Source: Candidatus Woesearchaeota archaeon (GTDB taxonomy: Archaea > Nanobdellota > Nanobdellia > SCGC-AAA011-G17 > GW2011-AR18). From it: a stretch of 62,406 bases of DNA. Numbering within the stretch: the stretch's first letter is position 1; each line of letters opens with the position of its first letter. The notes beneath the pieces are model-generated. The model saw nothing but the letters and a program-made list of their open reading frames with translations, was not told the origin of the DNA and searched no databases. Shown here in pieces: positions 752 to 59,869 of this stretch. Location: the NCBI GenBank assembly GCA_016179945.1, contig JACPCE010000003.1, positions 1 to 62,406 on the forward strand. Direction: 5' to 3'. The translations under genes and the position numbers were made by a program.

Positions 752-1612
752 ATGCTATTTTGGTATTTTTTAGTAATTGTTGCTTTAATTTGGATTACAT
801 TTGCAACAATTACAGATATAAAAAAAAGAGAAGTTCCAGATTGGTTGAATTATTCTCTAATAGCTATTGGTTTGGGTTCTAGATTGATTTACTCATTAAT
901 TACCGGTAAATATTCATATATTTTATATGGTTTATTGGGTGCAGCTATATTTTTCGGAATAGCAAACTTCATGTATTATACAAAACAATGGGGTGGAGGT
1001 GATGGTAAATTATTAATAGGTTTAGGAGCTATGTTTGGAAACTATGAAACCACATCATTATTTAATCCTATAATTAAATTGCCATTTCTTGCTACTTTAA
1101 TTATTAATATAATAATTGCAGGTACGGTTTATGGCCTATTATATGCAGCTTATTTAGGAAGTAAAAACAGTAAAAACTTCTTCAAAGAATTTAAAAAACA
1201 AAACTTCAAACATTTTAGAATAATTATTCCAATAATAATATTATCAATTGTAGTATTTTATTTTATTTTAGATAGAAATATTTTTATTCCTCTGTCTTTG
1301 CTTCTTCTTGTATTGGTTTCTGCTATTTTATTAATACAAATAATAAAAGTAATAGAAGATATATCACTATACAAAATGATTGATGTAAAAAAACTAGTAG
1401 AAGGAGATTGGTTGGCTTCTGATGTAATTAAAAATAATAAAATAATTTGTAAAGTAAGAAATATAGGTTTAACAAAAGAAGACATAATTGGTTTAAAGAA
1501 AAATAAAATCAACAAAGTTTTAGTAAAAGAGGGAATTCCATTTATTCCTGGATTTTTATTTGGATTTATAATAAGTATTGTATTTGGAGATTTATTATTT
1601 TTGTTTTTCTAA
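752..1612 (+). CDS. A24-family aspartic prepilin/preflagellin peptidase (PibD/FlaK-like) with a C-terminal extension
   Basis: Polytopic membrane protein with the two A24 motifs: TDIKKREVPD and GGGDGKLL. Confidence 0.75.
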   Translation: MLFWYFLVIVALIWITFATITDIKKREVPDWLNYSLIAIGLGSRLIYSLITGKYSYILYGLLGAAIFFGIANFMYYTKQWGGGDGKLLIGLGAMFGNYETTSLFNPIIKLPFLATLIINIIIAGTVYGLLYAAYLGSKNSKNFFKEFKKQNFKHFRIIIPIIILSIVVFYFILDRNIFIPLSLLLLVLVSAILLIQIIKVIEDISLYKMIDVKKLVEGDWLASDVIKNNKIICKVRNIGLTKEDIIGLKKNKINKVLVKEGIPFIPGFLFGFIISIVFGDLLFLFF

Positions 1613-2197
1613 ATTGAATGAAAAAATTATTTTGCTGCATGTACAGTTCAGCCCAAGCTGACAAAGAGCTACTTTTTCCGCTTTAAATTTAATCCTTTTA
1701 ATTGTTATAATATTTCCAGTTGTTGCAATAGTAATATGGGGTGTAAATTTTTCATAGCTTGCTTTTTTTACATAATTCTTCACAGTATCTATAGTGTGAT
1801 GATCTACTTTTTCTGATTTATAAAAAACATTTCTGCTCGGAGTAAGCGAAAAATAAGGCCTTAAACCATCAATTATACTTTCATGAAATTCCTGCAATTT
1901 CTTACTTTTATTTATTTTAAGAGCAAGAGAACCAGTTAAGGCTGTTTTATACATGTTTTCAATTTCAACATCAATATTTGAGAATTTAGCTACAATTTTT
2001 CTCGTAATATCTTTAACAACATTTAAATATTTTGTGTCTATATAACCAATAGCTAATGAAATATGGGGTATTGAGTTTCTATTATTAAGAATCAAAATTT
2101 TCTCTCCCAATTTAATCTGTTTTCTATTCATAGAAATAATCTTTTTTGATATTTCCTTTGGCAAAAGAATTACAACATCTAATGCTAAATATTTCAT
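1595..2197 (-). CDS. 2H phosphoesterase superfamily protein (LigT / 2'-5' RNA ligase-like)
   Basis: Two HxS/Tx motifs with typical spacing: PHISLAIG and PHITIATT. Confidence 0.6.
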   Translation of the reverse strand: MKYLALDVVILLPKEISKKIISMNRKQIKLGEKILILNNRNSIPHISLAIGYIDTKYLNVVKDITRKIVAKFSNIDVEIENMYKTALTGSLALKINKSKKLQEFHESIIDGLRPYFSLTPSRNVFYKSEKVDHHTIDTVKNYVKKASYEKFTPHITIATTGNIITIKRIKFKAEKVALCQLGLNCTCSKIIFSFNLEKQK

Positions 2198-10916: not shown

Positions 10917-11375
10917 ATGCCACATATTCATGATAAACTTGATTTTACAGTTGAAGTCTTTATTGTACATAAAAATAAGGTTCTTTTAAGAAAACACGAT
11001 AAATATAAAATTTGGTTGTCTATAGGTGGCCATATAGAACTTAATGAAGATCCAAATCAAGCTGCTATTCGTGAAGTTAAAGAAGAAGTTGGACTAAATG
11101 TTAAACTTGCAGGATACAATATGTTATTTTCAGATAATAATGAATATTATGAATTGATTCCGCCAAAGTTTCTTAACAGGCATAGAATAAATGAAGATCA
11201 CGAACATATTTCATTAATATATTTTGCCGTATCAGATACAGATAAGTTAATGCTTTCTCAAGAGGAATTGTCAGAAGAGTGTAGGTGGTTTACTTTGGAT
11301 GAGTTAGATAATTATGATATTAAAGAGAGTATAAAATTTTATGCAAGAAAAGCTTTGGAGGAGTTAAAACTTTAA
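10917..11375 (+). CDS. Nudix hydrolase
   Basis: Nudix box GGHIELNEDPNQAAIREVKEEVGL. Confidence 0.82.
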   Translation: MPHIHDKLDFTVEVFIVHKNKVLLRKHDKYKIWLSIGGHIELNEDPNQAAIREVKEEVGLNVKLAGYNMLFSDNNEYYELIPPKFLNRHRINEDHEHISLIYFAVSDTDKLMLSQEELSEECRWFTLDELDNYDIKESIKFYARKALEELKL

Positions 11376-20957: not shown

Positions 20958-20980
20958 GAATTTCTAATTGCTTAATTATA

Positions 20981-21116
20981 GGCGGCCATAGTGGCTTGGT
21001 TCCATCCGATCCCATATGTTTGACAAAAAAACAGGGTTGTTCGAACTCGGAAATTAAGCAAGCCCGCGTTCCGTATTGTACTGCGCTCAGCGCGGGAAGT
21101 GCGGTTAGCTGCCACC
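20981..21116 (+). rRNA. rrf: 5S ribosomal RNA with a ~23-24-nt insertion in the helix III / loop C region
   Basis: GGCGGCCATAG...TTCGAACTCGGAAATTAAGCAAGCC...GGGAAGTGCGGTTAGCTGCCACC matches archaeal 5S landmarks. Helix I pairs GGCGGC/GCUGCC, helix II GGCUUG/CAAGCC and helix III UCCGA/UCGGA. There is extra sequence between CCCAU and UUCGAAC. Confidence 0.8.
21016..21038 (+). other. Candidate mini-intron or expansion hairpin inside 5S rRNA
   Basis: CCC(21011-13)/GGG(21034-36) helix, AUA bulge, UGUUU-GACAAAA-AAACA hairpin, UUG bulge. The arrangement is BHB-like. Confidence 0.35.
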
Positions 21117-21128
21117 TTTATTTTTCAA

Positions 21129-23978: not shown

Positions 23979-25505
23979 TTATAGTTTGGATCTATTAGGC
24001 AGTTCAATTTTGTATACAAATTCCCTAAGCTTTCTCATTGAACTATCATAGTATTCCTTGCTTATATTTCCAGAAGCATAATTGTCTCTTAACATAATAG
24101 CTCTTCTTGCAATCTGCGACCTAATGTTTGATTGAAGATTGTTTTCAGAGGAAATGCTGTTTTGTGTATTTTTTACAATACCAAGCTGCCTTTCTTTATA
24201 AGTTTTAATCCCTAAATCAAAAAATTGCTCCAATTTTTTTAACTTTTTCATTTGTGAGCTTTCTACAAAAAATATTACCAATAATAATATTATAAATAAA
24301 ACATAAATCATAAAATTTTTATTAAGATAACTAAAAAAATCCTGTTTCGATTTTACATAAAATACATCAGAAGCACTGCTTACAACATTCCCGCTTGAAA
24401 CCTTTATATAAAGCAAGTAAGTTCCATCTTTAATGTAGTCAGGTAATTTGATTGTTTTAATATAATTAATTTGCATTTCAAATATTCTTGCTTCACTTTC
24501 TTCTATAATTTGATTATTTTCTAAATCCCTAATATAATAAGTGATATTTACATCTGTCTGCCCAGTTATCGTCTTTATATTTGTTATCGTTGTTTCAAAT
24601 ATTAATTTACTGCCAGAGCTTAGGGTGTTGTTAAAAATTTTTAAAACAACATCAAATAAAGGTTCTGGTGATGAGACCTCAAGAATAAAAGGAATTTGTT
24701 TAACTTCATCCAGATAGCTGATTTTTATTTTTTCAGTATATAATTCAGGTTTTAGATTTTTGTCTGTACGTATTGCAATTTTATATTCTTTAATTTCACC
24801 AGGTTCAATTTCAAATTCTTCTTTAAATAATCCAGAAGTGGAGATGAATTTGGCTACATTAGTTAGATCTATTTTAATTTTAATCGTTTCTTTGCCATTG
24901 TTTGTAAATATAATATAATGATCTACTGTACCGCCTGCAAAAGTTTTTAATTTAATTACTTTATCACTTATAGATATTGGATCAGGAACTTCTTTAATAG
25001 TGGGTGTTACTGGTAATGCTGCAACAGCACCCCTGCCACCCCCACCACTTCCACCAGAAATTGCTGATTGACTTGGAGCAGGAGCTTGAGTAGATACAGT
25101 AAATACAACTTGATTTGAATCATTAACTAAGCCAACACTGTCATTTGCATAAAGTCTTAATGTATGTATTCCATCGCTTGCAGTAAAAGTTATATTATCT
25201 GTAATTGTAATATTTGCTCCACTATCTAAATTATACCATATTGTACCTATAGAAGAGAAAGAATCATTTATAGAAAAATTAAGAAGTATTGTCGTTGTTG
25301 TATAAGTAATATTTTCTGGCAATGATAAAACAAGTGAAGGCGGCATAGTATCCACATTAATTGATACAGATAAAGAAGAGTAAGTAGCTTTAGAATGATA
25401 ATTTGGATCTTCTTTCAACCCAGTTAATAAAAAAACTAAAAATAAAAAAATAACTACAGAAAATATTAGTATTTTAGAGTTGTAATTAAAGTTACCATTG
25501 CCCAT
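23979..25505 (-). CDS. Membrane-anchored surface protein with Ig/CARDB-like beta-sandwich repeats
   Basis: N-terminal TM helix, many NxS/T sequons, a SGGSGGGGRG linker, a C-proximal TM helix and a charged cytoplasmic tail. Confidence 0.6.
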   Translation of the reverse strand: MGNGNFNYNSKILIFSVVIFLFLVFLLTGLKEDPNYHSKATYSSLSVSINVDTMPPSLVLSLPENITYTTTTILLNFSINDSFSSIGTIWYNLDSGANITITDNITFTASDGIHTLRLYANDSVGLVNDSNQVVFTVSTQAPAPSQSAISGGSGGGGRGAVAALPVTPTIKEVPDPISISDKVIKLKTFAGGTVDHYIIFTNNGKETIKIKIDLTNVAKFISTSGLFKEEFEIEPGEIKEYKIAIRTDKNLKPELYTEKIKISYLDEVKQIPFILEVSSPEPLFDVVLKIFNNTLSSGSKLIFETTITNIKTITGQTDVNITYYIRDLENNQIIEESEARIFEMQINYIKTIKLPDYIKDGTYLLYIKVSSGNVVSSASDVFYVKSKQDFFSYLNKNFMIYVLFIILLLVIFFVESSQMKKLKKLEQFFDLGIKTYKERQLGIVKNTQNSISSENNLQSNIRSQIARRAIMLRDNYASGNISKEYYDSSMRKLREFVYKIELPNRSKL

Positions 25506-27079: not shown

Positions 27080-30000
27080 TTAAATTATACCAATAGTCCA
27101 TGAACCAGCTCTAAATGTTGAATAAGATTGAGGTAATAATACACCAACTTCTTCTAAACAAAAGTATAATTGTTCTTGTGCAGTTCCATCATTTATAGTG
27201 TAGTTTCCTTTATTTAATGCTGCACCAGTTATTGTTACTAAAGTATTGTTGGCTAACCTATTACTAATTGGAGCATCAGTAGCACATCCAGATAAATCAG
27301 GATTTGAAGTAAAGTTGGAAGAGTTTATCCAGTAAGAACCAGTAACTTCTCCAATTAAATCTATTGCAGTAACAGTCACACCGCCTCCAACACCTATATT
27401 AACATTTCCAGTATTGTTTAATATTATTGGATGATTTATAGATAATTGGTTAACTTGGCCAGAAATAATAGTTGTAGGCCATCTTAAAGCAGTAGGTGCC
27501 ATTACAAATGCTTTTGTTGATTCAACTGTAAAGCTTACACTATTATTTGAAGCATTTAAATTATTGTTACTAATATTTGCGCTTGCAGTCCATGTTCCTG
27601 CACCGTCAAACCAGTAAAGTGGAACAGTACACCTGTATACTCTTGCTGTTGAGTTTAAGTCAAACATATTCTGGCATGTTGCATTATACCTGTAAGTTTC
27701 TTCTGTTCTGTTAAGATGGCCTTGAGCTGTAGCTGTAGCACTAAATCCAGCAGGATCTGCAGCAACATAATCAAAGCTTACATTTGTTATTCCAGCTTCT
27801 GTAATACTTTGTGCAGCAATGCTTGTAACGTTTAGTACAATAGGACTGCCACTACTAATTGTAAATGTTTGTAAATCTGTCTGGTTCATGTTATTTTTTG
27901 TATCATTTCCATAGAATCTCCAATATACAGTTGTACCAGGCACACCAGTTATTAAACTTGTATTTGTAGAAACATTTCCTGCGCCAAATGTTATTGCTGA
28001 TGTATTGTAAAATCCGCTACTGCTAAAATTAATTTCAAACATATAAGTGTTTAATCCTATATAATCTCTCCATGTAGCATTAAATACAACAAGTGTATTA
28101 TTATAGACTGTTGTTGTATTTCTCTGAACATCATACCATTCTGGGAACGGTGATGGGAAACTAGTTACTGTATGTGAAATTGTTCCATTAGTTCCACTAG
28201 TAGAGTTTCCTGCATCTGTACTTGCATCACATGCACCATCTGTTCCAGTTCCAGCAGTACCAAGTTCACTTGTATTAAAGAAACCAGCAGCAGTTACCAA
28301 AGCTCCATACCTATAAACTATTCTACCTCCGCCAGCACCACCCCCTCCACAAGAATCACTAGTTCCACTTCCACTAGCACTTCCTCCATTCCCACCCTTA
28401 GCAGTAATTCTACCAGTGCTGCTTAATGTTAAATTTCTAGATATTAAAATAACATGTCCTCCACTTCCGCCTCCACCACCAGACTGGTCTGTTGAACCTC
28501 CAGCACCACCAGCTGATCCATTTACATCAATAAGTCCATGTATATAGATAAATCCATTGCTTGCATTAACTCTAAATCCAGCACCACCATCACCACCAAT
28601 TGCAGCAGTTGCATCAGTTGCATCACTAGCAGAGCCGCCTCCGCCAGCACCAAACAACAATGTTAAATTAGTACCATCACTTGATGTAAGTCCTCCTTTT
28701 CCTTTTGTTCCAGCAGAACTATAACCTCCTTCTCCTCCAACACCACCGAAACCAGCACCACCACCTCCAGTACTGTCTCCTCCACTTGCTCTAGTTCCTC
28801 CACCCCCACCCCCACCATTAGGATTATTTGATGCAGTACCAGCACTTCCTGTATTGTTTTCTCCTTGTGTAGCAGTACATGTGTTTCCAGAACATCCTGT
28901 GCCATTCCTGCCACCTCTGCCAGATCCAGAAACTATTGAAGTAGAGTCTATAGTAAAGTTACCCTCATCACCTAAACTTATATTTACATATCCTGTTTGC
29001 CCACTTGCATTGTAAGGGCAAATTAGTAATGTGCCAGTATTAATTACTTCGATTTTATCATAAGCAGTAACTTCTCCACATAGTGTTTGTGAACCCCCAC
29101 TAATTGTAAGTGTTGGATCTACAACTATTTCATCATTAATTGATTTATTATTGATGCCATAATCCTTAGATAAGTAAACATAGACTATATTGGAATGTGT
29201 TTTCTTAACTTCTATGTTATATCCTGCTTCTCTCTCAGATTTAAAGTCAACTTCAAACTTGCCAGACTTCATATATCCGTCATAATAATCAATAACATCA
29301 ATAGGAGAGCTTGAACTTATTCTATACCTCACTTTGAAATCATTAGCTGGTAATAGGAATTTGTTTTCAATTTTCCATTTATATCCTTTGTTATATTTCG
29401 CTTTGCTAAATTTCCTTCCTTCTATGTCTTTCTTTATTTCCTTTGAATCAAATTCTATATCTATTGTTGTATCTTCAAATGTTGAAGTATAAGTAAATTC
29501 ATCTTTTGAATCAAGAGGAATAGCCTCATCAAATAATTTTCCATTAATAATTGGTTTGTGTATAATCAAAGTCTTCTTATTCTTATTCTTCAGAGTAATT
29601 TCTTCTGCAGAATAACTTAGAACATTAATGTCTTCTATATTATTTTTTGATATTGTAATATTTCTTTCTTCTATTATACTATCTATTGTACTAATTTCAC
29701 TTTGTATTGTATAATTTGGTGAAGTAGGTATGGTTATATTGTCAAATGTCTCAGTAATATTACTTTGTGTTAAGTTTACATCTTCAGTTAAATTAGTTTC
29801 ATTAGTTGTTTTTAAAGCCTTATCTTTCTCAGTTTTTCCAACTGTAATTTCAGTTAAATTTTCTGCTAGTATTGTATTATTGTCTATTATTCTTGAAACT
29901 AAACTGTAATTTCCTGATTTAGTTGGAACAGGTATTTCAAATACAGTGCTGTTTATTGTCAAATTGCTTATATTGTATCCGTAAACAGTTTCATTATTAA

Positions 30001-30520
30001 TAGATTTATTACTAATTTCAGACAAGAAATTATTTACAGGTTTTGTATAATTTTTATTATCAAATTCCAATTGTACAATGCTTGAGTTAGGTATAAAATT
30101 ATTTATTTCAAAGTATATGCTTTCATTTACAGTTCCGCTTTCATAGAATGCAAATCCAGTAATTTCAGGTCTAACAAGCAATAAAGTTAAAATAAACAAC
30201 CCTAAGACACCTAAAATTGCTGTTGTTTGAAGTGCTTTTGTCTTGATATTTTCTTTCTTAATTTCACTGCTGCACACTTCTAATTTATTTCTATAATTTT
30301 CTATGCATTTGTTGTAATAATTAACCCATTGTTCGCAACTTCTATTCTTCAATACAGTGTTTAGTTTAGATTTGTATTGGTCATAAGTAATTCTGCCTTC
30401 TCTGTATTGTTTTTCTAGTTCCTGACTAAACTCAATTATCTTTCTCTTGTATTTCTGGCAAAGCTGAATATTCCTAATTAACTCAATCTTTCTCCTTTCT
30501 AGATTAGTTAATGATTTCAT
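27080..30520 (-). CDS. Giant (1146 aa) membrane-anchored, sequon-rich surface protein with a glycine-rich central region
   Basis: N-terminal ~95-aa cytoplasmic coiled region, one TM helix, a long beta-rich ectodomain, a GGxGG-rich block (residues ~530-770), and a C-terminal module paralogous to the 313-aa protein. Confidence 0.7.
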   Translation of the reverse strand: MKSLTNLERRKIELIRNIQLCQKYKRKIIEFSQELEKQYREGRITYDQYKSKLNTVLKNRSCEQWVNYYNKCIENYRNKLEVCSSEIKKENIKTKALQTTAILGVLGLFILTLLLVRPEITGFAFYESGTVNESIYFEINNFIPNSSIVQLEFDNKNYTKPVNNFLSEISNKSINNETVYGYNISNLTINSTVFEIPVPTKSGNYSLVSRIIDNNTILAENLTEITVGKTEKDKALKTTNETNLTEDVNLTQSNITETFDNITIPTSPNYTIQSEISTIDSIIEERNITISKNNIEDINVLSYSAEEITLKNKNKKTLIIHKPIINGKLFDEAIPLDSKDEFTYTSTFEDTTIDIEFDSKEIKKDIEGRKFSKAKYNKGYKWKIENKFLLPANDFKVRYRISSSSPIDVIDYYDGYMKSGKFEVDFKSEREAGYNIEVKKTHSNIVYVYLSKDYGINNKSINDEIVVDPTLTISGGSQTLCGEVTAYDKIEVINTGTLLICPYNASGQTGYVNISLGDEGNFTIDSTSIVSGSGRGGRNGTGCSGNTCTATQGENNTGSAGTASNNPNGGGGGGGTRASGGDSTGGGGAGFGGVGGEGGYSSAGTKGKGGLTSSDGTNLTLLFGAGGGGSASDATDATAAIGGDGGAGFRVNASNGFIYIHGLIDVNGSAGGAGGSTDQSGGGGGSGGHVILISRNLTLSSTGRITAKGGNGGSASGSGTSDSCGGGGAGGGRIVYRYGALVTAAGFFNTSELGTAGTGTDGACDASTDAGNSTSGTNGTISHTVTSFPSPFPEWYDVQRNTTTVYNNTLVVFNATWRDYIGLNTYMFEINFSSSGFYNTSAITFGAGNVSTNTSLITGVPGTTVYWRFYGNDTKNNMNQTDLQTFTISSGSPIVLNVTSIAAQSITEAGITNVSFDYVAADPAGFSATATAQGHLNRTEETYRYNATCQNMFDLNSTARVYRCTVPLYWFDGAGTWTASANISNNNLNASNNSVSFTVESTKAFVMAPTALRWPTTIISGQVNQLSINHPIILNNTGNVNIGVGGGVTVTAIDLIGEVTGSYWINSSNFTSNPDLSGCATDAPISNRLANNTLVTITGAALNKGNYTINDGTAQEQLYFCLEEVGVLLPQSYSTFRAGSWTIGII
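27586..27845. repeat. Copy B of the ~260-bp shared segment
   Basis: See copy A (26592-26853). Confidence 0.7.
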
Positions 30521-32786: not shown

Positions 32787-34496
32787 TTATTTTAAATAAG
32801 ATTTAGCAAACCTTGTAGCAATACTAAATTTAATTTTATTTTTTATACCAACAGCTTCGTATTTAATATCTCCATTTTGCAATGCCATTATGGCAGCACT
32901 AACATCTCCTTCTTCAGCAATTTTCTGTATTGCTGATTGTGATGTTTTTATTATCAATGAGGGTTTAAAATTTTTATAATCACACATATTAAATTCTTTA
33001 ACAACACCATTATCTAAAACAATACAAAACACTGCATCTTTTCCATAATTTCTATTTATAATAGCAACTACACGCTCATTGCCAAATAATTTTTGTAATT
33101 GTACTGGCAAGGTTTGTCCTTCAACATACTTTTTTAAAACACCAACATCAAAATTTTTTAGTATTCCTAATTGTTCTAATTTTCTCTCTGTTTTTTCCTT
33201 TCTTTCATTTATAGAAGGTGGAGCTAAATTAATTACATTTTCTCTTCCATAAACTTCTCTAACCTGTTCTTGAGATGTAATAGTCTCCCCTAAGTTTTCT
33301 ACATTTTGTATAGGTTGTTCTTGGTTAACGGTATTTGCTTGTGCATTTGTATTTTGAATAACTTCATAATTATCAACAAGAGTCCTTCTAGAAAGTGTTT
33401 CTACAATAGCAGCAGAAAATGCTGTAATATTTCGTTGTCCTGAAACAAGATTAATTGATGCATTTTGAGCTAGTGTTTGAACTTCAGGATTTTCTTGAAG
33501 GAATTGATTGACTTCTATTTCCCCAACATAAACTTTAGCACAAGCATCCCTCAAGCTGTTTTTTAAAGCAAAATTGCCATGTGCCACTTCACAAGCATAT
33601 TCTCTTCTGACTCCAAAATGATTTATTATACCTATTCTGTTTGCATTAGACCTTGCAGAAGTTCCATAACTACAATTTGTGTAGTCTACAGCGCAAATCT
33701 CACCTATGTCATGCTTAGCAATTGGTTCGTTACATACATTATTTCTAGATGTTAAAAACTGCCTCTGTTCTTGTGTAGTAAGAAGGACACGAGGACATCT
33801 CTCCCAGTCATATGTGGCATATTGTGCATTAGCAGGAAATTTTATCTCAACATTGTTTCCACTCCAAATATTAAGCCAATTGACATTGCATGTAGCTTTA
33901 TTTAATCCATTGAATTTTTTCTTACCAACAACACCTTCTACATAACAAGAAAATTCCCAATAATATGAACGATATGGCGGCTGACTGTATTCATAAGGAC
34001 AATTAGTAAAATCAATTATGCAACTATCTCCAAGATAAACTTCATCTGGAAGAGGTGGTTCTTCTAAAACACTTTGTAATGCACCTGCAATTTCTGTTTC
34101 AGATAACTGCCCATTAGCTCCGCCTCCGCCACCAGGATTATTATTTTCTAATGAATGAATTCTATCTTGAAAACGATCAAATAACTGGTCAGAATCATGT
34201 TCGTATTGAACTGCTAAAGTAACAATTGCTCCTGCAGGCGTTGCAGATGCAGCAAGCGTAGCAAGACCTTGTACTTCTTCAACAATATGTGCAACATTTT
34301 CTACATCTTCAATAACCCTATTTAATTCTCTGCCTACTCTTGTTCTATCTAGTTCTTCTTCAACTTGGTTTGTAAGACTCTGCCAGAGATTTTCAACAGA
34401 ATGGTGTATAAATGCCTGCACTGGAAAAGCCAAAATTAAAACCATAATTAAAACTACAAATATATAATAGGATCTAACCTCTTTTAATTTCATCAT
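32787..34496 (-). CDS. Secreted protein with two Cys-containing repeats and a possible SCP2-like C-terminal domain
   Basis: Signal peptide. Repeats: DSCIIDFTNCPYEYS...FSCYVEG and EICAVDYTNCSYGTS...YACEVAHG. C-terminal AAIMALQNGDIKYEAVG. Confidence 0.5.
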   Translation of the reverse strand: MMKLKEVRSYYIFVVLIMVLILAFPVQAFIHHSVENLWQSLTNQVEEELDRTRVGRELNRVIEDVENVAHIVEEVQGLATLAASATPAGAIVTLAVQYEHDSDQLFDRFQDRIHSLENNNPGGGGGANGQLSETEIAGALQSVLEEPPLPDEVYLGDSCIIDFTNCPYEYSQPPYRSYYWEFSCYVEGVVGKKKFNGLNKATCNVNWLNIWSGNNVEIKFPANAQYATYDWERCPRVLLTTQEQRQFLTSRNNVCNEPIAKHDIGEICAVDYTNCSYGTSARSNANRIGIINHFGVRREYACEVAHGNFALKNSLRDACAKVYVGEIEVNQFLQENPEVQTLAQNASINLVSGQRNITAFSAAIVETLSRRTLVDNYEVIQNTNAQANTVNQEQPIQNVENLGETITSQEQVREVYGRENVINLAPPSINERKEKTERKLEQLGILKNFDVGVLKKYVEGQTLPVQLQKLFGNERVVAIINRNYGKDAVFCIVLDNGVVKEFNMCDYKNFKPSLIIKTSQSAIQKIAEEGDVSAAIMALQNGDIKYEAVGIKNKIKFSIATRFAKSYLK

Positions 34497-34545
34497 TAAA
34501 TTTCACTACTTAAACTATATAAATATTTCTCAATATCAAATAGTG

Positions 34546-35556
34546 ATGATAGAAATAGATGGATCAATAGGCGGAGGACAAATTTTAAGAACGGCTTTAA
34601 GTTTATCAGCTCTAACACAAAAAACATTTAAAATAATAAACATTCGGGGAAAAAGAGAAAATGCAGGTTTGCAGCATCAGCATCTTACAGCAGTTAATTC
34701 TATATCAAAGATTTGCAATGCTCAAATAAAAGGAAATGAACTGCATTCTAAAGAATTAGAATTTACTCCAAATAATGTAACTCCAGGAAGTTATAAATTT
34801 GATATAGGGACTGCAGGTTCTACAATTCTTGTTTTACAGACACTACTTCCACCACTAATTTTTGCAAAAGAAAAATCAACATTAGAAATAACAGGTGGCA
34901 CAGCAAATCCATTAGCACCGCCTGCTTTAGATATAAAAGAAGTTTTTTTATGGCATCTGGAAAAAATAGGTATTGATGTAAAATTAGAAATAGAAAAAGA
35001 AGGATTTTATCCAAAAGGTGGAGGTGAAATAAAAGTTATAATAAATACTTGCAAAGAAATAAAAGAATTAAATTTATTAGAACATCATAAAGGCAATTAT
35101 GAAGAAACAAAAATAATTGCTGTTTGTTCTAAAGAATTAAAAGAAAGAGAGGTTGCTAAAAGAATGATTAAAGGTTTTAAATTGAATTTTCCAATACAAA
35201 ATAAAATATTATCAGAAGAGTTATATGCAGAAACTCTAAGTCCGGGATGTTATATTCATGCAAATTATAATTATGAAGATCATAAAATTGGAATGTCTGT
35301 TTTGGGAGAAAAATCAAAAAAAGCAGAAGATATAGGAAAAGAATGTGCATTAAAATTATTGGAAGAAATGAAAACAGGAGCAAGTACAGATCATTTCACA
35401 GCAGATCAATTATTAATTTATATGGCTATTAAAGGTTCTGGTAAATTAAAAGTTTCGCAAATAACAGATCATATGAAGACAAATATTCAAATTATAGAGA
35501 AATTTTTAGATGTAAAATTTAATATTAAAGATAATGTAATTGAATGTATTAAATAA
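34546..35556 (+). CDS. rtcA: RNA 3'-terminal phosphate cyclase
   Basis: MIEIDGSIGGGQILRTALSLSAL... and the overall RtcA layout with TDHFTADQLLIYMA near the C-terminus. Confidence 0.9.
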   Translation: MIEIDGSIGGGQILRTALSLSALTQKTFKIINIRGKRENAGLQHQHLTAVNSISKICNAQIKGNELHSKELEFTPNNVTPGSYKFDIGTAGSTILVLQTLLPPLIFAKEKSTLEITGGTANPLAPPALDIKEVFLWHLEKIGIDVKLEIEKEGFYPKGGGEIKVIINTCKEIKELNLLEHHKGNYEETKIIAVCSKELKEREVAKRMIKGFKLNFPIQNKILSEELYAETLSPGCYIHANYNYEDHKIGMSVLGEKSKKAEDIGKECALKLLEEMKTGASTDHFTADQLLIYMAIKGSGKLKVSQITDHMKTNIQIIEKFLDVKFNIKDNVIECIK

Positions 35557-35995
35557 ATTTATTTAAACCACCAGTTAGAAATTCATTTGCTTTTTTCAAA
35601 ACATTCTTTGTATTGCTAAATTTAATTAATTTTAAAGCATCTTCAAAATTACACCATCTAAAATCATCATGTTCAAAACTTATTTTTACTTCTTTATTTT
35701 TAGTTTCAGCTAAATAATAAGTTGCTTCTTTAAAAATAGTTTGGCCTTCTTTTTTGTAGAACCATTTAACCTTTTCTTTAAATCCTTTAATGAATTTTAT
35801 ATCTTCAATTCCTGTTTCTTCTTTTACTTCTCTTTTAATATCATCTCCAGGTGTTTCTCCTTTTTCAATTAAGCCTCTTGGAAAATCCCACATTTCTTTA
35901 TAATGTTCATGTGCATTTCTGTATAATAACAAGTAAAGAACTTCTTTTCCTTCTCTTCTAAATATTACTGCACCGTAAGATATTTCTTTTGGCAT
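35549..35995 (-). CDS. Nudix hydrolase
   Basis: Nudix box RGLIEKGETPGDDIKREVKEETGI. Confidence 0.8.
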   Translation of the reverse strand: MPKEISYGAVIFRREGKEVLYLLLYRNAHEHYKEMWDFPRGLIEKGETPGDDIKREVKEETGIEDIKFIKGFKEKVKWFYKKEGQTIFKEATYYLAETKNKEVKISFEHDDFRWCNFEDALKLIKFSNTKNVLKKANEFLTGGLNKFI

Positions 35996-36453
35996 TATCT
36001 ATTCAATGTAAACTTCTTTCCCTGATCTAAGTCTATAAATTCATCAGTGGCTTCTTTTAATTTTCCACTGCAGCTTCTTCCAAAAGCTAAAACTTCAACC
36101 TTGCATCCCAATGCCCTTTTCAAATGTTCAACTAAAGGAATATAGTCTCCATCACCAGAGGCTAAAACAACAACATCTAATTTTGGAGCCAGCTCAATAG
36201 CATCTATAGCCAATCCAACGTCCCAGTCAGCCTTTTTATTTCCACCATAAAAAACTTGCAGATCTTTTAATTTAACTTCAAAACCAATACCATCTAATGC
36301 CTTAAAAAAATTTTCTTCATCTTTTTCTCCAGCTCTTACACCATATGCAATTGCTCTGACTAATTTTCTTCCATTTACAGCTTCTCTTAAAATTTCCTTA
36401 AAATTTACTTTTGAATTATACAATGCTCTTGCACTGTAATACATATTTTGCAC
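35995..36453 (-). CDS. NYN-domain (LabA-like) protein, apparently N-terminally truncated
   Basis: VVLASGDGDYIPLVEHLKRALGCKVEVLAFG is the LabA/NYN core. The frame is open only from ...NNRVDVQNMYY, with no ATG before the conserved DxxN Asp. The track start is a GTG after that Asp. Confidence 0.6.
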   Translation of the reverse strand: MQNMYYSARALYNSKVNFKEILREAVNGRKLVRAIAYGVRAGEKDEENFFKALDGIGFEVKLKDLQVFYGGNKKADWDVGLAIDAIELAPKLDVVVLASGDGDYIPLVEHLKRALGCKVEVLAFGRSCSGKLKEATDEFIDLDQGKKFTLNR

Positions 36454-40379: not shown

Positions 40380-40847
40380 ATGATTATAAATAAAAAAGAT
40401 TATGAAAAAATCCTGGAAGTTATGCCTATTTGTTGTGTTGATCTTATAATAAGTTATAAAGGAGAGATATTGTTTGTAAAAAGAAAAAACAAACCACTAA
40501 AAGGAAAATGGTGTTTTCCAGGTGGTCGAATTTATAAAAATGAGAAATTAGAAAAAGCAGCAACTAGAAAGGCATTTGAAGAAGTAGGAATAAATATCAA
40601 AATCGAAAGAAAACTTGGAGTTTACGAAACGTTTTTTAGAAAAGGACCATTTCAAAATCCTAAAACAAACCCCCATACAATTAACATTGTATTTATAGCA
40701 AAACCTGCTTCTAAAAATTTTGAAATTAAAATAGATAAGCAAAGCAGTGAATATAAATGGTTTGATGAAATAAAGAAAGAATTCCCTAATTATGTTAAAG
40801 AAGTATTAGATGATTACAAGAAACTTATTTCTCCAAAAAATTTATAA
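40380..40847 (+). CDS. Nudix hydrolase
   Basis: Nudix box GGRIYKNEKLEKAATRKAFEEVGI. Confidence 0.8.
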   Translation: MIINKKDYEKILEVMPICCVDLIISYKGEILFVKRKNKPLKGKWCFPGGRIYKNEKLEKAATRKAFEEVGINIKIERKLGVYETFFRKGPFQNPKTNPHTINIVFIAKPASKNFEIKIDKQSSEYKWFDEIKKEFPNYVKEVLDDYKKLISPKNL

Positions 40848-40904: not shown

Positions 40905-41468
40905 TTGGGGGATATACTTGCATTAACTAATAACATAAATGGATTTGATATTACTTCTAATGAAGCTTATGACCCAACAATTAGGTTTTATGATTGGATG
41001 AGCTATGAAATTATAAACAACAACCCAAACTACATTTTTATACCTTTTGGAACTGGACAGCTTTATGAAAATGTAATGAACATAATTAAAAAAGAATTAA
41101 ATTATAAAGAAAAAGACCCTCGTTTTCTTGGTGATTATAATATTTTAAATAATGTATCAGTATTGGGGGCTACAACAACAAATCCCAAAAGCAAGGCAGA
41201 TAAATTATATGCTCCTTATTTGCCATTTGCAAATTATTCAAAACAATGGATAAAATACTATAAATATAGTGGATTAACAGGTCAAATGAGTTCTGTTTAC
41301 AATATTAATGAAAAATTTTTAAATGTAGCAATTAAAATTGCTGAAGATCAAGAAATAAATTGTGAACCATCAGGAATTGCAGGTTTAGCTCTTTTATTAC
41401 AAATAAAAAACAAAATTCCTAAAAATTCTAAAATACTTATAGTGAACACAGGAAAAACAAAAATTTAG
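40905..41468 (+). CDS. C-terminal fragment of a PLP-dependent (tryptophan synthase beta-like fold) enzyme; probably a truncated gene
   Basis: IFIPFGTGQLYENV and EPSGIAGLALLLQ...ILIVNTGKTK resemble the C-terminal domain only. It has a TTG start. There is no room upstream for the Lys-PLP N-terminal domain. Confidence 0.4.
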   Translation: MGDILALTNNINGFDITSNEAYDPTIRFYDWMSYEIINNNPNYIFIPFGTGQLYENVMNIIKKELNYKEKDPRFLGDYNILNNVSVLGATTTNPKSKADKLYAPYLPFANYSKQWIKYYKYSGLTGQMSSVYNINEKFLNVAIKIAEDQEINCEPSGIAGLALLLQIKNKIPKNSKILIVNTGKTKI

Positions 41469-44792: not shown

Positions 44793-45773
44793 ATGCTTGA
44801 TAAAAAAGATTTAAAAATATTGTGGGAATTAGATAATAATGCAAGAATTTCTTTATCAGAATTAGCAAAGAAAATTGGAATATCAAAGCAAAATTTAAAT
44901 TATAGAATAAAAAAATTAATTCAAAAAGATTATTTACTTGGTTTTACTACTCTTATTAATTTTCACAAATTGGGTTATATTGGTTACAGAATATATTTTC
45001 GTTATAGAAACATTACAGAAGAAAGAGAAAAGGAGTTTATTAATTATTTAAAAAATCACAACAATATTGTTTGGTTTGTTAGCACTTCAGGTTCTTGGGA
45101 TATAGAAGTTTTATTTATCGCAGAAAATCCAATACAATTTAATAATATTTTTAAAAAAATAAAAGAAGATTATGGTCAATATTTTTCAAAATATAATGTT
45201 TCTACATCTATTGTAAACTATCATTTTAATAGGGATTATTTAATAAATAAAAAAAGAGGTTTATTTTCTCCTAAATATTATGGATTTGAACCAAAAAAGG
45301 AAGAATTAGATGAATTAGATATTAAAATTCTTTCAGAAATAGCAAATAATTGCAGGCAATCTAATCAAGAAATTGGAAGAAAATTCAAAATAACATATCA
45401 TACAGTAAAAGAAAGAATTAAAAAATTAGAAAATAAGAAAATTATTCAAAAGTATATTGCTGAAATAAATTTAAATAAAATTAATATAAATTATTGTAAA
45501 GCAATATTATATCTTAATAATCCATCTAAAGAAGAGGAAAAAAAACTGTATTCTTTTTGTAGCCAATATAATTTTGTTACTTATTTGGTAGAAGTATTAG
45601 GTGAATGGCAATTTGAAATAGAAGCTGAAATAGAATCACAAGATCAACTAATAGCTTTACTAAGAAAAATAAGAAATGAATTTCCCAATTTAATAACAGA
45701 TTATGATATATTACAAGTAACTAAAAGACATAAATTAAATTATTTCCCAATCAAACAATTTATAAAATCATAA
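44793..45773 (+). CDS. Tandem Lrp/AsnC-type regulator (two HTH_AsnC plus effector-domain repeats)
   Basis: LDKKDLKILWELDNNARISLSELAKKIGISKQNLNYRIKKL, and a second copy LDELDIKILSEIANNCRQSNQEIGRKFKITYHTVKERIKKL. Confidence 0.65.
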   Translation: MLDKKDLKILWELDNNARISLSELAKKIGISKQNLNYRIKKLIQKDYLLGFTTLINFHKLGYIGYRIYFRYRNITEEREKEFINYLKNHNNIVWFVSTSGSWDIEVLFIAENPIQFNNIFKKIKEDYGQYFSKYNVSTSIVNYHFNRDYLINKKRGLFSPKYYGFEPKKEELDELDIKILSEIANNCRQSNQEIGRKFKITYHTVKERIKKLENKKIIQKYIAEINLNKININYCKAILYLNNPSKEEEKKLYSFCSQYNFVTYLVEVLGEWQFEIEAEIESQDQLIALLRKIRNEFPNLITDYDILQVTKRHKLNYFPIKQFIKS

Positions 45774-45788
45774 AAACAAAAAAATAAC

Positions 45789-46480
45789 ATGGTAACAATA
45801 TGCGGTATCGATGATGCTGGTAGAAAGTTTAACTTTTGTTGAACTTACCAAGAGGTCCTGTCATCGGTCCAATGGTAATGGCTGGAATAGTAGTTGATGA
45901 GAAAGATTTACCAAAATTAAAAGAGTTAGGCGTAAAAGACTCAAAATTATTAACACCACAGCAAAGAGAGCAAATATTTTCTAAATTAATAAAAACTATA
46001 AAAAGATATAAAATAATTAAAATCTCACCAGAAGAAATAGACAAATATGTTCTTTCAGAAACTACTAACTTAAATTGGCTAGAAGCGGATAAAATGGCAG
46101 AAATTATTAATTCGTTGAAGCCTGACCAGGTTATAGTTGATTGCCCAAGCAACAATAAAAAAGCATTTGCAAATTATTTAGATTGTAAAATTACAGTTAA
46201 AACAAGTTTGAGATGTGAGCATAAAGCAGATTTGCTTTTTCCAGTTGTAGGAGCAGCCTCAATTTTAGCAAAAGTTACAAGAGACAAGGAAATAGAATTA
46301 ATAAAAAAAAGAATTGGTATAAATTTCAATTCAGGATACCCAGCAGACCCAATTACTAAAAAATTCTTAAAAGAAAATTGGAATAAATATCCAGAAATAT
46401 TCAGACATTCATGGTCTTCTTATAGAGATTATTCAGAAGGAAAAAAATCTAAAAACCAGAAAATGTTGGGAGATTTCTAA
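45789..46480 (+). CDS. rnhB: Ribonuclease HII, coding sequence interrupted by a 29-nt intervening sequence: join(45789..45823,45853..46480)
   Basis: Exon 1 encodes MVTICGIDDAG(R). The long ORF resumes (R)GPVIGPMVMAGIVVDE...KDSKLLTP...HKADLLFPVVGAASILAKVTRD...SGYPADP. Only after removal of 29 nt is the canonical GIDxAGRGPVIGP N-terminus in frame. Confidence 0.8.
45824..45852 (+). other. Candidate BHB-type mini-intron (or bypassed element) within rnhB
   Basis: UGGU(45818-21)/ACCA(45847-50) 4-bp helix, flanked on opposite strands by AGA bulges (45822-24 and 45851-53). It encloses the hairpin AAGUUUAAC-UUUU-GUUGAACUU (45825-46). The length of 29 nt (2 mod 3) matches the observed frame change. 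Confidence 0.55.
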
Positions 46481-59740: not shown

Positions 59741-59794
59741 AATTCTTAGTGTTTGATTTTTACGGGCCCGTAGCTCAGCTTGGTAGAGCATCTG

Positions 59795-59806
59795 AGTTAT
59801 GATGAA
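59795..59806 (+). other. Putative 12-nt intron at tRNA position 30/31
   Basis: Alternative fold: outer helix AGAG(21-24)/CUCU(32-35), central helix CAUC(25-28)/GAUG, bulges UG|A and AA|A. Confidence 0.4.
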
Positions 59807-59813
59807 ACTCTTA

Positions 59814-59830
59814 ACAAGTAAAATAGAGAG
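59814..59830 (+). other. Putative 17-nt intron at the canonical 37/38 position
   Basis: Central helix CUCU(32-35)/AGAG, 5' bulge UA|A, 3' bulge AG|A, followed directly by the UCAGA stem strand. Confidence 0.5.
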
Positions 59831-59869
59831 ATCAGATGGTCGCGCGTTCAAATCGCGTCGGGCCCGCTA

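Follow-up and report, generated by a model that had tools for sequence, protein, structure and literature searches.

A 29-nt segment at positions 45824-45852 of contig JACPCE010000003.1, from a Candidatus Woesearchaeota archaeon, interrupts rnhB, the gene for RNase HII, and is probably a bulge-helix-bulge (BHB) intron of the rnhB pre-mRNA. The window analysed here is the whole 62,406-nt stretch of this contig; rnhB and all parts of the insert lie on its forward (+) strand. The insert has a recognisable anatomy, is conserved and covaries in 16 lineages, restores the reading frame exactly when it is excised, and is accompanied by an additional constraint on synonymous sites in the flanking exons. 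An intron of this kind had been put forward in a preliminary description of the same DNA, and, as far as sequence comparison can speak for it, that reading is supported by the recurrence of the insert, by covariation and by frame restoration.

The reading frame that opens with the ATG at 45789 reads MVTICGIDDAGRKFNFC (also given as MVTICGIDDAGR, then KFNFC) and is ended by a TGA at 45840-45842. As the preliminary description had stated, a long open reading frame (ORF) then resumes in another frame (45836-46480, TTG start, 214 codons); it reads MLNLPRGPVIGPMVMAG, with the continuation given as ...RGPVIGPMVMAG. Excision of the 29 nt at 45824-45852 joined the two frames at GGT AG/A GGT CCT and gave a 220-amino-acid RNase HII. 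This product matched positions 1-197 of the 199 in the Pfam profile RNase_HII (PF01351, E = 2e-47) and aligned without gaps to the Pyrococcus RNase HII 1uax through VAGVDEAGRGPVIGP (...DEAGRGPVIGP..., E = 2.8e-52); it was also aligned to 1io2. The earlier statement that the deletion restores a canonical RNase HII N-terminus is borne out by these matches, and the junction may slide by one position, 45825-45853 being equivalent to 45824-45852, owing to the AGA...AGA repeat.

The 1uax alignment places the insert within an Arg codon just after the catalytic D-(E/D)-A-G motif. The active site of archaeal RNase HII is of the DEDD type, with four catalytic carboxylates. Exon 1 (45789-45823; the ATG plus 11 2/3 codons, coding for MVTICGIDDAG and the AG of Arg12) bears the first two of these, D8 and D9, which in the alignment are the D/E of the DEAG motif. 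The predicted intron contains the in-frame TGA that is met if the message is not spliced, and exon 2 (45853-46480) starts with the last base of Arg12 and continues with GPVIGPMVMAG... to the stop. A full RNase HII domain including the N-terminal motif was present in the spliced product only; the unspliced ORFs do not contain the motif, in agreement with the earlier remark that a start at the TTG at 45836 would lose the catalytic residues. No second rnhB-like sequence was found in the 62,406-nt window.

A protein search with the spliced product returned thousands of RNase HII proteins, the nearest of which were labelled Woesearchaeota or Nanoarchaeota. The close relatives were mostly complete (216-221 amino acids), and about a dozen were 200-203 amino acids long and started at a Met matching residue 19 (one of them begins MLILPIGPVIGPM), which is the pattern expected of a gene caller when the 5' end of a gene is interrupted. 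The DNA of the relatives was then read. The comparison of orthologous loci suggested in the preliminary description found the insert in this same codon in 15 other Woesearchaeota/Nanoarchaeota lineages with distinct sequences, which together with the window make 16 lineages, and also found an ortholog from which it is exactly absent and base pairs that co-vary. The intron-bearing sequences were drawn from NCBI metagenome-assembled genomes, JGI and ENA metagenomes and Logan assemblies, representing different projects and pipelines, and the RNase HII proteins of the 15 other lineages are 55-82% identical to that of the window. The insert is 29 nt long in the window gene, 30 nt in L006, L015, L028, L045, L046, L047, L048, L049, L050, L052, L053 and L054, 34 nt in L031 (the same sequence as L032), 26 nt in L035 and 33 nt in L013.

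Every insert introduces an in-frame stop or a frameshift, the stop commonly being AAC UGA, UAA or UAG in the hairpin loop. All of the intron-bearing loci retain an ATG or GTG, 11-12 conserved exon 1 codons and a full exon 2; exon 1 variation among the 16 lineages is mostly synonymous with the frame kept, and none of these lineages showed a further disabling mutation. The syntenic ortholog L020, in which the upstream helix-turn-helix regulator gene is 85% identical and rnhB 79% identical, lacks precisely these 29 nt, and five pairing synonymous positions are changed in it. An independent Logan assembly (L055, SRR12113431) is base-for-base identical to the window across the insert. Because the insert recurs, the exons are intact and the L055 assembly is identical, both assembly error, which the preliminary description had marked for checking, and recent gene decay are excluded; conservation in 16 lineages contradicts the recently inactivated gene that it had listed as an alternative.

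The 76-nt region of the insert and its flanks folded with a minimum free energy (MFE) of -24.1 kcal/mol, compared with -15.4 ± 2.9 kcal/mol for dinucleotide shuffles (z = -3.0; 0 of 200 shuffles as good), and all 16 intron-bearing sequences adopt the same fold. Its central helix, H, pairs UGGU of exon 1 (45818-45821) with ACCA at the 3' end of the intron (45847-45850); the 5' strand is 100% paired in 15 aligned sequences, and in L013 the 3' strand is GCCU, matching AGGU opposite. The 5' bulge, AGA (45822-45824, 3 nt), lies 3' of H on the 5' strand, with the predicted cut after 45823; it is AAA in L048 and CGA in L013, and its third base is A in 15 of the 15 sequences tabulated. It leads into the inner helix h', a 9-bp hairpin AAGUUUAAC-UUUU-GUUGAACUU (45825-45846, loop UUUU at 45834-45837) with one U-G pair. 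The 3' bulge (45851-45854) lies 3' of H on the 3' strand, with the predicted cut after 45852, and consists of AGA (3 nt, 45851-45853) or more probably AGAG (4 nt); AGA, AUA, UUA and AAA occur there among the lineages. Outside the bulges, 5' strands at 45804-45817 pair with 3' strands at 45855-45870. The proximal outer helix h has 2 bp (45816-45817 with 45855-45856, as C45817-G45855 and G45816-U45856), and a distal exon-exon helix of 11 bp joins GGUAUCGAUGAU (45804-45815, with 45806 bulged) to GUCAUCGGUCC (45860-45870), with 97% of cells paired. No Rfam match was obtained in 45700-45950, even at E ≤ 1.

The UGGU/ACCA helix, the two AGA triplets and the UUUU hairpin with its U-G pair are all present as they had been described beforehand. 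The outer helix had been called weak, which is correct for its short proximal part; the 11-bp exon-exon helix and the 2-bp proximal helix had been overlooked. Two 3-nt bulges had also been described, of which the 5' bulge stands at 3 nt and the 3' bulge is probably 4 nt, a size that in our models fits both the folding energy (-23.7 kcal/mol for a 4-nt bulge with a 2-bp h, versus -20.7 kcal/mol for a strict 3-nt bulge with an outer helix of a single C-G pair) and the GGY constraint at Gly12 described below. The classification as a relaxed motif was retained: as modelled, the element is best described as a relaxed BHB with an h of 2-3 bp, a bulge of 4 nt, an H of 4 bp, a bulge of 3 nt and an h' of 9 bp, clamped by the distal helix.

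Structure counts were made on an alignment of 15 of the 16 intron-bearing sequences (L015 was found later and left out), and the structure counted was the helix register of the preliminary description together with the hairpin and the outer exon-exon helix. Standard pairs occupied 94.9% of cells, as against at most 43% when the 3' partners were slid by 1-3 columns. Twelve cells were changed on both sides (shuffled 3.8 ± 1.6) and the covariation score was 0.176 (shuffled 0.115 ± 0.011), values reached by 0 of 500 shuffles in each case, in a control that ignores sequence relatedness. The pair U45818-A45850 is U-A in 14 sequences and A-U in L013, where the second H pair shows a one-sided change from U-A to U-G. 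The first hairpin pair, A45825-U45846, is A-U in 12 sequences and G-C in 3, and 5 of the 8 counted pairs of the hairpin are changed on both sides across lineages. The single-sequence MFE shifts the central helix by 1 nt, to GGUA/UACC with bulges GAA and AAGA; this register was rejected, its pair A45822-U45846 being broken in L031, L035 and L013. Since both of the pairs that distinguish the registers (U45818-A45850 and A45825-U45846) covary in favour of the one originally described, the comparative data decide for it. Judged from the alignment, the covariation support for the structure is good, short of overwhelming.

Both strands of the exon-exon helix are coding, and the test of that helix is therefore found in the synonymous sites of intron-bearing versus intron-less genes. 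Codon usage was contrasted in 15 intron-bearing and 24 intron-less rnhB genes. Gly10 was GGT in 15/15 intron-bearing and 9/24 intron-less genes (p = 9e-5), Val14 was GTC in 15/15 and 8/24 (p = 2.5e-5), Ile15 was ATC in 14/15 and 9/24 (p = 7e-4), and the third base of Arg/Lys11 was A in 15/15 and 10/24 (p = 1.4e-4). The codon ATA was used for Ile6 in none of the 15 intron-bearing genes and in 9 of the 24 others (p = 0.007). Gly12 was GGY in 15/15 and 15/24, respectively (p = 0.007), which fits a G45816-Y45856 pair; with C45817-G45855 this gives the 2-bp proximal helix and a 4-nt 3' bulge, AGAG. The third positions of Ala9 and Gly10 are frozen in the intron-bearing genes, that of Ala9 (Ser in L035) being U where the intron ends in ACCA and A in L013, where it ends in GCCU. 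The pairing synonymous sites are frozen only with the intron present. Genes with and without the intron are intermingled in a neighbour-joining tree, and the contrast therefore does not reduce to one clade set against another.

From these observations we infer splicing itself, its efficiency, and the tRNA splicing endonuclease EndA and the ligase RtcB as its enzymes. In the precursor, the exon 1 UGGU would pair with the last four intron bases, ACCA, to form the central 4-bp helix. The 3-nt AGA bulge would then separate this helix from the 9-bp intron hairpin on the 5' strand, and the AGA(G) bulge of 3-4 nt would separate it on the 3' strand from the short outer helix, which the 11-bp exon-exon helix prolongs. 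EndA would cut past the second nucleotide in each bulge, that is, after 45823 and after 45852, and an RtcB-type ligase would join ...GGU AG to A GGU CCU.... Ligation would restore the Arg12 codon and the catalytic DDAGRGP motif, so that the 220-amino-acid RNase HII could be made; an unspliced mRNA would yield a 17-amino-acid peptide only.

In pre-tRNAs with an intron at 37/38, the endonuclease cuts two nucleotides 3' of each H strand. The preliminary description had already noted that cuts after the second bulge nucleotide give an in-frame junction, and this holds in 16/16 lineages: the ligated GGU AG+A GGU reads Gly-Arg-Gly, and the same rule produces Arg or Lys followed by GPVIGP in every lineage despite five insert lengths. 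A cut one nucleotide earlier gives Ile or Gln in L053, L054 and L013. A cut one nucleotide later is predicted from the sequences to yield the identical product.

Several observations weigh against this model. The motif probably departs from a strict 3-4-3 hBHBh', its proximal outer helix having only 1-3 bp and being weaker than the canonical one. Enzymes of the alpha4 and alpha'2 types need two bulges of exactly 3 nt, and an EndA of strict specificity (alpha4 or alpha2) might not cut such a relaxed motif. Neither EndA nor RtcB was found among the about 70 ORFs of the 62-kb window in a Pfam sweep. The MFE of the single sequence prefers the shifted register, as described above. The double-sided changes lie mostly in L013, L031 and L035, the three most divergent sequences, and the shuffle control does not take shared ancestry into account. 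No spliced-form protein was found for ten intron-bearing proteins, including that of the window, that were looked up in a collection of 15 billion proteins. Broad-specificity EndAs are known to accept relaxed BHB motifs whose bulges measure 1-4 nt (PMC3239211), and DPANN lineages possess EndA variants whose extra loop is linked to disruption of tRNA genes (PMC5829648).

The window contains further genes of RNA processing. An RNA 3'-terminal phosphate cyclase, RtcA, is encoded at 34543-35556 (+) with a GTG start (Pfam E = 5.6e-78); an NYN-domain nuclease is encoded near it at 35995-36453 (-) (6e-32), and a 2H/LigT-like protein of the '2'-5' RNA ligase' superfamily at 1595-2197 (-) (3e-7). An intron-bearing tRNA gene lies at 59764-59866 (Rfam 53 bits), with about 29-32 nt in the anticodon loop and an anticodon that is apparently UAU; ARAGORN made no call there. 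This tRNA was considered as a local model of the BHB and set aside, as its MFE fold contains no canonical motif and only two pairs of the expected 4-bp 37/38 helix, and nothing about enzyme specificity was concluded from it. The RtcA gene and the intron-bearing tRNA, together with the reports of EndA in DPANN (PMC5829648), lend indirect support to the presence of EndA and an RtcB-type ligase in the host.

Among the alternatives, enzymes different from EndA and RtcB, again a nuclease and a ligase, might remove the 29 nt from the RNA, or the 29 nt might be a small mobile DNA element that duplicated a 3-bp AGA target and whose excision would not be enzymatically precise; we regard these possibilities as improbable. 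The probable deviation of the motif from a strict 3-4-3 BHB would suit them, the window does code for the RtcA cyclase, the NYN nuclease and the 2H/LigT-like protein, and the AGA...AGA direct repeat resembles a target-site duplication. However, a 4-bp helix with bulges on opposite strands and cuts two nucleotides into the bulges is what EndA measures, and the direct repeat is not retained in L013, L015, L048, L053 and L054. Neither the window nor 304 kb of related loci yielded a further copy of the element, which gives no sign of a dispersed mobile family, and no Rfam family was matched; a search of a phage collection likewise gave no match. The mismatch of the two triplets in the same five lineages also bears on programmed translational bypassing of the T4 gene-60 type, in which the ribosome would take off at AGA 45822-45824, skip the hairpin and land at AGA 45851-45853. 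The window gene taken by itself speaks for such a mechanism, with matched AGA codons around a stable hairpin and a stop downstream of the take-off site. Bypassing calls for equal take-off and landing codons, but these are unequal elsewhere (CGA/AAA in L013, AGA/UUA in L053, AGA/AUA in L054 and L015, AAA/AGA in L048), and the codon after take-off is the sense codon AAG, with no stop directly there. Bypassing also leaves unexplained both the covariation of exon base 45818 with intron base 45850 and the frozen synonymous sites of the exons, up to 20 nt away on both sides. This alternative, raised in the preliminary description, fails on the codon mismatches, and we consider it very improbable.

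Nor does the insert look like a tolerated lesion in a disabled gene that yields nothing, or a catalytically dead product from the TTG at 45836 or an ATG at 45843. Gene callers annotate only the downstream ORF of 200-214 amino acids, and many close relatives do without the insert, which is hence dispensable. Against this, 16 lineages at 55-82% identity keep both exons open with mostly synonymous change in exon 1 and without a second lesion, the insert is itself structurally constrained, and the truncated protein would be without two of the four catalytic carboxylates and would not account for the conservation of exon 1; there is very little chance of a dead gene or a truncated product. A sequencing or assembly artefact, for which only the small size of the insert speaks, is practically out of the question with an identical insert in the independent assembly of SRR12113431 and homologous inserts in 15 other assemblies.

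The distribution of the insert is patchy. Intron-bearing genes are scattered among intron-less sisters in the neighbour-joining tree, and the proteins of the intron-bearing L045 and of P0017 differ at few positions by eye. Fifteen inserts are of recognisably shared sequence (consensus AAGUUUAAC ... GUUAAGCUU ACCA AGA), which favours a single old intron that has undergone many precise losses or has given way to intron-less alleles via recombination; the patchy distribution would then reflect such repeated loss or allele replacement. The insert of L013 (region 3034-3069 of L013) is in the same codon, is unlike the other fifteen in sequence and lies on a distant branch, and may have been gained separately at this position. 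The records of L009, L013, L014 and L018 are titled 'uncultured Methanosarcinales archaeon', although their rnhB groups with Woesearchaeota/Nanoarchaeota, probably a binning or labelling problem.

We think it unlikely, but conceivable, that Woesearchaeota have a larger and so far unrecognised group of EndA-type introns in genes other than those for tRNA, to which the rnhB intron would belong. Such introns could turn over fast, since lineages with >95% identical proteins differ in intron presence, and could be spread or erased by recombination or splicing reversal at conserved, structure-prone sites. In that case the rnhB intron could act as a gate, making the production of RNase HII depend on how active the tRNA-splicing machinery is. 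The 5S rRNA gene of the window (20978-21117) is 140 nt long versus the 120 positions of the Rfam model, with about 24 extra nt in loop C (27 versus 3). In its MFE fold the insertion, at about 21012-21037, has a 3-bp CCC/GGG helix, a 3-nt AUA bulge on the 5' strand and a UGUUU/AAACA hairpin stacked on GGG. The modelled helix-bulge-hairpin layout resembles that of the rnhB intron, and the insertion may represent a small intron or simply an expansion segment.

When the window was scanned for generic BHB motifs, with a 4-bp H, 3-nt bulges, a hairpin of 5 bp or more and fusion of ORFs after removal as requirements, there were 2,542 motif hits and 175 candidates that would join ORFs, too noisy without homology in AT-rich DNA; the rnhB site was distinguished there only by its 9-bp hairpin and its G+C-containing H. 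The Pfam sweep of the about 70 window ORFs found no further truncated or split genes. One ORF at 40905-41468 (+) (187 amino acids, TTG start) matches positions 139-295 of 295 of the PALP profile only, below the gathering score. It was considered as half of a split gene; the upstream ORF is an unrelated NUDIX protein, so that a gene fragment is likelier. The 62 kb contain three separate NUDIX hydrolase genes (10917-11375, 35549-35995 and 40380-40847), a high number for a small genome. Three large ORFs had no Pfam match at E ≤ 1e-5: 27080-30520 (-), 1146 amino acids; 32787-34496 (-), 569 amino acids; and 23979-25505 (-), 508 amino acids.

In current annotation the gene appears as an N-terminally truncated RNase HII without an active site, and an essential repair function is consequently mis-scored in metabolic reconstructions. 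Orthologs with and without the intron, a syntenic pair among them, form a natural series in which intron gain, precise loss and the cost to exon codon choice can be measured.

The closest known system is the BHB intron in the cbf5 pre-mRNA of Crenarchaeota, reportedly described by Watanabe and colleagues in 2002 and by Yoshinari and colleagues in 2006. Like the rnhB insert it is short, lies inside a coding sequence at or next to catalytic residues, such that removal is needed for function, often has a relaxed motif and a patchy distribution, and is expected to be cut by the tRNA splicing endonuclease. Yokobori et al. (2009) read the patchy distribution of cbf5 introns as gain and secondary loss and drew attention to a position beside a catalytic residue (PMC2738675). 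The two differ in gene, cbf5 coding for an RNA pseudouridine synthase and rnhB for a nuclease of DNA repair and replication, and in host, which is TACK for cbf5 and DPANN/Woesearchaeota here, where the endonuclease is probably not of the crenarchaeal (alpha-beta)2 type. The rnhB intron is moreover only 35 nt from the start codon, its motif is clamped by an 11-bp exon-exon helix, and its splicing is predicted.

In eukaryotes, HAC1 and XBP1 mRNAs are spliced by IRE1 and RtcB, the XBP1 intron being 26 nt long. These share with the model proposed for rnhB a short intron in the coding sequence, a protein endonuclease acting on stem-loops, ligation by RtcB and a change of reading frame, and differ in having an unrelated nuclease, another recognition motif and a role in a regulated stress response. 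The canonical hBHBh' intron of archaeal pre-tRNAs at 37/38 has the same topology as the rnhB insert (5' exon H strand, 3-nt bulge, intron hairpin, intron H strand, bulge, outer helix) and is cut two nucleotides into each bulge, as is predicted here; the 29 nt of the rnhB insert compare with 11-175 nt for archaeal tRNA introns (PMC2738675). The rnhB substrate is, in contrast, an mRNA, with an outer helix of 1-3 bp and a distal helix instead of an anticodon stem, and with a 3' bulge of probably 4 nt. The BHB intron of HVO_1309 in Haloferax volcanii is likewise carried by an mRNA, a substrate of the splicing endonuclease that is neither tRNA nor rRNA; it differs in lying in the 5' untranslated region, where no reading frame is interrupted, and in having been validated in vivo and in vitro (PMC7714728).

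Besides its own case in the 5' untranslated region, that 2020 study of EndA substrates names cbf5 as the only additional reported BHB intron (PMC7714728), and later EndA papers cite the cbf5 work only. A full-text literature search, with most subscription journals outside its reach, found nothing on rnhB introns or on BHB introns in DPANN mRNAs. The earlier suggestion that BHB introns in coding sequences were known essentially from cbf5 alone agrees with this literature. For more than 20 years cbf5 has been the sole documented protein-coding sequence that depends on EndA, and rnhB, if the reading is true, would be the second gene family. Splicing of mRNA by EndA and RtcB would then be no crenarchaeal oddity, and the expected substrate range of DPANN endonucleases would be widened. 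The proposed mechanism is one already known from other systems; novelty lies in the gene, in the lineage and in the exon-clamped relaxed motif.

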